Positions 7,951 to 9,104 of a stretch of DNA of 9,104 nt are shown piece after piece. The position numbers and the translations under genes were made by a program. The stretch is from a virus (taxonomy: Duplodnaviria; Heunggongvirae; Uroviricota; Caudoviricetes). Location: the IMG/VR virus record IMGVR_UViG_2703718773_000014, one strand, 5' to 3'. Every line of letters starts with the position of its first letter. The stretch's first letter is position 1. The notes beneath the pieces were generated by a model that was not told where the DNA came from, made no database searches, and saw only the letters and a program-made list of their open reading frames with translations.

Positions 7951-8169
7951 ATGTACTTGACACTTCAGGAGTGGAACGCACGCCAGCGACGCCCAAGAAG
8001 CCTTGAAACAGTTCGTCGATGGGTGCGCGAATGCAGGATATTCCCTCCTCCGGTTAAGGATGGAAGAGAGTATCTGTTCCACGAATCAGCGGTAAAGGTT
8101 GACTTAAATCGACCAGTAACAGGTAGCCTTTTGAAGAGGATCAGAAATGGGAAGAAGGCGAAGTCATGA
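7951..8169 (+). CDS. xis: Excisionase Xis (72 aa)
   Basis: MYLTLQEWNARQRRPRSLETVRRWVRECRIFPPPVKDGREYLFHESAVKVDLNRPV... matches lambda Xis. Its 3' end overlaps the int start. Confidence 0.93.
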   Translation: MYLTLQEWNARQRRPRSLETVRRWVRECRIFPPPVKDGREYLFHESAVKVDLNRPVTGSLLKRIRNGKKAKS

Positions 8170-8947
8170 GCGCCGGGATTTACCCCCTAACCTTTATATA
8201 AGAAACAATGGATATTACTGCTACAGGGACCCAAGGACGGGTAAAGAGTTTGGTTTAGGCCGAGACAGGAGGATAGCAATCACTGAAGCAATACAGGCCA
8301 ATATTGAGTTATTTTCAGGACACAAACACAAGCCTCTGACAGCGAGAATCAACAGTGATAATTCTGTTACGTTACATTCATGGCTTGATCGCTACGAAAA
8401 AATCCTCGCCAGCAGAGGAATCAAGCAGAAGACACTCATAAATTACATGAGCAAAATTAAAGCAATAAGGAGGGGGCTGCCTGATGCTCCACTTGAAGAC
8501 ATCACCACAAAAGAAATTGCGGCAATGCTCAATGGATACATAGACGAGGGCAAGGCGGCGTCAGCCAAGTTAATCAGATCAACACTGAGCGATGCATTCC
8601 GAGAGGCAATAGCTGAAGGCCATATAACAACAAACCCGGTCGCTGCCACTCGCGCAGCAAAATCAGAGGTAAGGAGATCAAGACTTACGGCTGACGAATA
8701 CCTGAAAATTTATCAAGCAGCAGAATCATCACCATGTTGGCTCAGACTTGCAATGGAACTGGCTGTTGTTACCGGGCAGCGAGTTGGTGATTTATGCGAA
8801 ATGAAGTGGTCTGATATCGTAGATGGATATCTTTATGTCGAACAAAGCAAAACAGGCGTAAAAATTGCCATCCCTACAACATTGCATGTTGATGCTCTCG
8901 GGATATCAATGAAGGAAACACTTGATAAATGCAAAGAGATTCTTTGA
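8147..8947 (+). pseudogene. int: Integrase Int, lambda type, truncated after codon 266 by IS insertion (tyrosine recombinase lacking its C-terminal catalytic region)
   Basis: MGRRRSHERRDLPPNLYIRNNGYYCYRDPRTGKEFGLGRDRRIAITEAIQ... matches lambda Int up to ...KETLDKCKEIL, then stops at a TGA formed by the first bases of the IS terminus (8945-8947). Lambda Int is 356 aa; the catalytic Tyr region is missing. Confidence 0.9.
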
Positions 8948-9104
8948 ACCGCCCCGGGTTTCCTGGAGCGTGTTTTATCTGTGAACTCAGGCTGCCAGAT
9001 CATTGTTTCCGATGGAAGCATAATAAGCTTTTTCTGCTTCTGCCGGAGGAGTATGGCCCAGCCTTCCCAGCAATCGTCGCTTGTTATACCAGTCCACCCA
9101 CGTT
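8945..9104 (-). mobile_element. IS3-family (IS629-like) insertion sequence, right-end 160 bp including the right inverted repeat; element continues beyond the window
   Basis: Begins TGAACCGCCCCGGGTTTCCTGGAG (IRR read inward). The reverse strand encodes a transposase C-terminus. The orientation is the same as the copy at 1-24. Confidence 0.85.
8987..9104 (-). CDS. IS3-family transposase OrfB, C-terminal 38 codons (partial; continues beyond window)
   Basis: Minus-strand translation ...TWVDWYNKRRLLGRLGHTPPAEAEKAYYASIGNNDLAA* is the typical C-terminal tail of IS3-family (IS629-like) transposases. Confidence 0.8.
   Translation of the reverse strand, partial: TWVDWYNKRRLLGRLGHTPPAEAEKAYYASIGNNDLAA

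Follow-up and report, generated by a model that had tools for sequence, protein, structure and literature searches.

A lambda-family prophage integrase gene split by an IS629/IS1203-family insertion sequence

The integrase gene of a lambda-family prophage is interrupted directly after codon 266 by the end of an insertion sequence (IS) of the IS629/IS1203 family, so that the last 90 residues of the recombinase, which carry most of its active site, are separated from the rest. We analysed a stretch of 9,104 nucleotides (hereafter, the window) that contains the early-left arm of this prophage and ends inside the IS. The junction between int and the IS, the identity of the IS and the loss of catalytic residues were observed directly, and a reciprocal junction with a target duplication was observed in related assemblies. 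The window itself stops 160 nt into the IS, and the 3’ part of int, attL and the rest of the prophage are known from those other assemblies. We consider it very probable that a simple insertion, int::IS629, left an Int protein without catalytic activity and a prophage that would be unable to excise itself.

The prophage and its truncated integrase gene

The placement of the window in the early-left arm relied on its list of open reading frames (ORFs) together with matches to annotated genomes (Table 1). Positions 25-8944 are 99.9-100% identical to prophages in complete genomes of Shiga-toxin-type E. coli (O103:H2, O121, O145, O111 and others). In those complete genomes int encodes 356 aa and adjoins ybhC, which is the classical lambda attB. 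The xis gene (7951-8169) overlaps the start of int at 8147, and its product matches the Pfam family Exc (PF07825) over residues 1-72, that is, over its full length, with an E-value of 3.9e-41. An earlier, sequence-only reading of this DNA had described xis as intact, which agrees with its full length and its near-identity to lambda Xis (71/72).

Table 1. Positions of prophage genes, insertion sequence ends and junction features in the window.
Feature	Position	Strand	Remarks
Left-hand IS629-family copy, terminal 24 nt (IRL end)	1-24	-	element extends leftward beyond the window; its transposase would be on the minus strand
cro-cII intergenic remnant; nutR boxA 66-73, boxB 42-56	25-81	-	motif location
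434-type cro	ends at 82	-	
434-type cI	401-1033		
N, then DUF2528 gene, then cIII/kil	between cI and gam		
gam	3849-4265		
bet	4271-5056		
exo	5053-5733		
Several small ORFs	between exo and xis		
xis, complete, 72 aa	7951-8169	+	71/72 identical to lambda Xis
int codons 1-266	8147-8944	+	arm-binding and core-binding domains and first half of catalytic domain
CTT, target-site copy on the int 5’ side	8942-8944	.	3-bp duplication
TGA stop of truncated int	8945-8947	+	first three bases of the IS inverted repeat
Right-hand IS629/IS1203-family copy: IRR end (inverted repeat 8945-8968) and 3’ end of transposase orfB	8945-9104	-	cut off by the window end

The ORF at 8147-8947 (+) encodes 266 aa, and aligning this product with lambda Int gave a gapless match to residues 1-266 in which 263 of 266 positions are identical and the last residue is L266. 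Its sequence also agrees completely with the first 266 residues of WP_000533643.1, an intact 356-aa allele that many Shiga-toxin E. coli genomes carry beside ybhC, at the lambda attachment site; in the prophage of the O103:H2 strain FWSEC0007 (L003), which served as our intact reference, the first 266 residues of the intact allele are the same as the window product. At the DNA level, identity to intact int ended at window position 8944 in every comparison. Where the intact gene reads ...GAGATTCTT GGC GGA..., the window reads ...GAGATTCTT TGAACCGCCCCGGG...; at the target site itself, the window has ...ATTCTT/TGAACC (the slash marking the boundary) and the intact gene has ...ATTCTTGGCGGAG. Because homology to int ends at 8944 and the sequence from 8945 onward belongs to the IS, the TGA at 8945-8947 consists wholly of IS bases. 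The proposal that Int follows lambda Int to residue 266 and then meets a stop supplied by an IS terminus was therefore borne out. The span originally given for the disrupted gene, 8147-8958, does contain the truncation, but its right end falls within the inverted repeat of the IS, and the true boundary between gene and IS is 8944/8945.

The exact 266-aa product is recorded in 23 contigs, and nine of the ten draft contigs that we fetched, which derive from different NCBI and Logan samples, carry the same junction (...ATTCTT/TGAACCGCC...). All nine end within the IS, as short-read contigs do. The occurrence of one junction across nine independent contigs rules out a one-off misassembly. The junction was found in 0 of 5,426 complete RefSeq E. 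coli genomes, and exact-pattern scans of genome_contigs, viral_contigs and metagenome_contigs returned no int/IS junction, reciprocal junction or left junction.

The insertion sequences and the far side of the split gene

Several comparisons assign the right-hand element to a known IS group. Positions 8945-8968 (TGAACCGCCCCGGGTTTCCTGGAG) form a 24-nt inverted repeat with window positions 1-24, the two being 92% complementary. Thousands of copies that match 8945-9104 are annotated as IS3-family, IS629 or IS1203 transposase, with 96-98.8% identity over 160 nt, and the same segment is colinear, with 6 mismatches, with the first 160 nt of a complete 1310-bp IS in the intact reference prophage. The terminal inverted repeats begin 5’-TG and match known IS629/IS1203-group copies, the right terminus reading TGAACCGCCCCGGG.... 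The transposase lies on the minus strand, antisense to int, and the 3’ end of orfB runs into the inverted repeat. IS629/IS1203, a member of the IS3 family, is an abundant insertion sequence of enterohaemorrhagic E. coli. Elements of this group are about 1.3 kb long and have orfA and orfB with a programmed frameshift; the 160 nt in the window cover the C-terminus of orfB. The window element shares with this group its terminal inverted repeat, its level of identity and, as described below, a 3-bp target duplication; it differs in that only two termini fall inside the window and that its right end is a variant without a 100% identical copy in the 5,426 complete E. coli genomes.

Other assemblies with the identical junction have an IS that differs from this variant at 6 of 160 nt, including changes to three amino acids in the C-terminus of orfB. 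The discrepancy could reflect gene conversion, an assembler that switched to a different IS copy or an independent insertion into the same site, and it leaves the overall conclusion unchanged. In the O103:H2 strain, the 1310-bp IS629-family copy occupies L003 7872-9181, between kil and gam, with a 3-bp duplication (ACC), in a prophage that is otherwise identical to the window and has an intact int. Some O103/O121 genomes appear to hold two internal IS copies.

A left-hand IS had also been claimed, and a second IS terminus does occupy the left edge of the window: positions 1-24 match the final 24 nt of the 1310-bp IS in L003 at 23 of 24 positions and are identical to the IS end in contig L027. 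The junction at 24/25 places this copy upstream of cII, at 62 nt from its ATG in the intact prophage (reference L003 3900-4080), in the tR1 zone, with nutR kept on the cro side, between cro and the IS. N-modified pR transcription might read through the left IS, because its transposase points along pR transcription and nutR lies upstream. The left and right copies are directly oriented and flank an 8.9-kb segment. One contig (L004) carries the int insertion and continues through cII, O and P without the left IS, which shows that the two insertions arose separately. If the direct copies recombined, the 8.9-kb segment would be lost and not frozen in place. We set aside a composite transposon built from the two copies, since the IS tips abut the segment and leave it outside both elements; the absence of the left copy from L004 also disfavours that arrangement.

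To look beyond the window end, we searched for the 3’ portion of int and for attL on the far side of the right IS, and both were found in related assemblies. A query consisting of the missing 90 Int residues returned partial proteins, for example P0001 (DFRGGSL-GGETII...), which also carries the reciprocal junction. We also predicted the gene-caller products of an IS end followed by CTT and int codon 267 and looked them up in the collection, where four such reciprocal-junction proteins were found (P0058, P0059, P0060 and P0061). The contigs that encode them, L014, L026 and L027, begin with the IRL end of the IS (...CCGGGGCGGTTCA), followed by CTT and then by GGCGGAGAAACC..., and across the junction they read ...GGTTCA/CTTGGCGGAG. 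CTT is thus present on both sides of the IS, in the window and in these three contigs from other assemblies, as a 3-bp target duplication. About 250 further contigs start exactly at codon 267 and adjoin ybhC. In L027, lambda homology begins at CTT-GGC, takes in the int stop and the P’ arm and finishes with the 15-bp core, after which the contig switches to DNA of the ybhC side. Both L027 and the intact reference L003 have an attL, in which the 15-bp core is flanked by the P’ arm towards int and by bacterial DNA on the far side.

For this lineage, the reciprocal junction and the 3-bp duplication show a simple insertion that left attL and the 3’ part of int intact. The look-ups, which give one representative place per protein, did not link both junctions to one sample; we infer from the other assemblies that the window’s own genome keeps the int 3’ part beyond the IS.

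Consequences for Int and alternative explanations

The truncated product retains both DNA-binding domains. Its arm-binding domain (PF09003) spans residues 1-69 with an E-value of 4.8e-33 and is identical to lambda Int over residues 1-64, and its core-binding domain is matched by PF22022 and PF02899 over residues 81-171. Only positions 2-86 of the 172 in the catalytic domain model PF00589 remain, compared with 2-168 in the intact protein. R212 and K235 are retained, whereas the missing 90 residues include H308, R311, H333 and Y342, the last of which acts as the nucleophile and makes the 3’ phosphotyrosine link (PMC4880445). With four of the six active-site residues gone, Y342 among them, Int(1-266) is predicted to be unable to cleave or rejoin DNA. 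The catalytic domain of a lambda-type integrase is incomplete, which marks the ORF as a gene fragment and not a functional family member, and the int gene is predicted to be inactive for catalysis, as the sequence-only reading had expected from the placement of active-site residues in the missing C-terminal part. On the other side of the insertion, the frame of the int remnant is open for 46 codons into the IS, without an in-frame start before M290, and would yield at most a 67-aa fragment. A C-terminal fusion product read out of the IS was rejected for the lack of an in-frame start codon before M290.

Solved structures of lambda Int (PDB 1Z1G, 5J0N and 1AE9) span the whole protein. The window Int shares with this protein its domain order and 99% identity over residues 1-266, and its gene has exactly the lambda overlap with xis; related genomes also have the lambda core and P’ arm and the same attB beside ybhC. 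It differs in the splitting off of the last 90 residues by the IS and in three substitutions, H164P, A245T and I248V, all of which are also found in the intact allele of the prophage lineage.

Our preferred explanation, that of a simple insertion, would run as follows. A lambda-family prophage, which in related genomes sits at the classical lambda attB beside ybhC, would have received a 1.3-kb element of the IS629/IS1203 family (IS3 family) by transposition between int codons 266 and 267, with duplication of CTT. Translation of int would now halt at the TGA formed by the IS tip, giving Int(1-266), which, from its domain content, probably still binds arm-type and core-type DNA sites. Excision and re-integration by the prophage’s own Int would be abolished, despite an intact xis and, in the lineage, an intact attL. 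The second IS, of the same family and orientation and located between nutR and cII, is a separate event.

Excision in vivo would be lost under this explanation. A precedent is found in O157 Sakai, where the lambdoid prophages Sp3, Sp11 and Sp12 have disrupted integrases, were predicted not to excise and gave no detectable circular form (PMC2669165). That case concerns another strain and another lesion, and int beside ybhC is intact in the complete O157:H7 genomes that we inspected. The description of the present prophage as locked in place is a reasonable one for self-excision, and fits the Sakai case, but it is not absolute: the outcome could change if the IS were excised, if Int were supplied in trans or if the IS copies recombined.

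The lock might accordingly be conditional, with excision of the IS, promoted by the IS-excision enhancer IEE, restoring int in a subpopulation, or a lambda-type Int of a co-resident or superinfecting phage acting in trans, so that the prophage would be remobilised; we regard this as unlikely. Clean excision would regenerate wild-type int, because the insertion left a 3-bp duplication and otherwise unchanged flanks, and attL is intact; window positions 25-8944 still match functional-looking alleles at 100%. Int supplied in trans should act on intact att sites, and int-defective lambda prophages are cured in this way. In the presence of IEE, IS629 and related elements excise more often (PMC9943667), and IEE-mediated excision of IS600 restores a split lacZ in O121:H19 (PMC9397093). 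Against remobilisation, no revertant allele is linked to the lineage, and the second IS between nutR and cII constitutes an additional defect. We give little credence to a more specific form of the idea, in which int::IS629 would behave as a reversible lock by analogy with lacZ::IS600 in O121:H19, such that in iee+ hosts rare cells would regain int and mobility would be switched on in a subpopulation.

A different outcome would follow if the right IS marked the endpoint of a deletion or rearrangement in the source genome, with the int 3’ part and attL gone or moved. The window does end within the IS, two direct copies flank the 8.9-kb segment, the window IS sequence differs from that in other contigs with the same junction, and genomic deletions have been associated with IS629 (PMC9943667). 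However, the reciprocal junction occurs with a perfect 3-bp duplication in several assemblies, and the roughly 250 contigs that start at codon 267 do so beside ybhC, which makes such a rearrangement quite improbable. That the junction arose as an assembly artefact, with a contig entering a collapsed repeat, is scarcely credible. Although the window resembles a short-read contig bounded by IS ends, and its IS part is not 100% identical to any complete-genome copy, the identical junction recurs in nine independent NCBI and Logan contigs, and its reciprocal counterpart carries the target duplication expected of the IS family. Finally, Int(1-266) could have been retained as a working DNA-binding protein, for example as a dominant-negative competitor at arm and core sites, given that its arm-binding and core-binding domains are complete and that the allele is present in many isolates. 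We think this very doubtful: the flanks are 100% identical to intact alleles, so the insertion is recent and clonal descent accounts for its spread; nothing points to selection, and the locus holds many different int remnants.

Related int remnants and neighbouring ORFs

A comparable lesion is present in E. coli strain E203449 (NZ_CM128603.1), in which the same int, at the same site, is split by an IS3-family element, and both halves persist as pseudogene pieces beside ybhC. The insertion there (L001 4248-6631) lies about 21 codons further upstream and represents an independent event in a much more degraded prophage, a remnant with three or more IS3-family copies. Beside ybhC, many E. coli genomes have just a 67-aa int tail (L029-L038), and the neighbours of this tail vary, including effector genes, P22-like genes and a frameshifted int; lambda attB therefore often holds decayed prophage scars. 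Looking up the 67-aa remnant ORF (P0062) returned many other int scars at ybhC, none of them with the window’s IS.

In such E. coli, prophages are well known to decay through IS insertion into their genes. The split int is ordinary prophage decay of this already known kind, is present in many public E. coli assemblies and opens no new question; it provides an example of IS-driven prophage domestication in Shiga-toxin-type E. coli. In annotation and strain typing, this locus is best treated as a lambda-type prophage at attB whose int is a pseudogene interrupted by IS629; calling it a short integrase would be wrong. The junction that these assemblies share could be used as a lineage marker.

Other ORFs in the window drew our attention. 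Downstream of cI, where lambda has rexAB, a 134-aa ORF at 1030-1434 (+) has a signal-peptide-like start, and its sole match is to a PHROG of unknown function. A 200-aa ORF at 6899-7501 (-) lies antisense to its neighbours, between a TraR/DksA-like gene and xis; its N-terminal half is hydrophobic-looking, and it too matches solely a PHROG of unknown function. Directly 3’ of N, the ORF at 2107-2988 (+) encodes 289-293 aa and had no Pfam or PADLOC match. Its final 20 residues (NPVNHAHQRNPNKKWS) match the C-terminus of a PHROG annotated as ‘Nun-like transcription termination factor’ (E-value 7e-5), and the ORF may encode a larger protein with a Nun-type exclusion tail.
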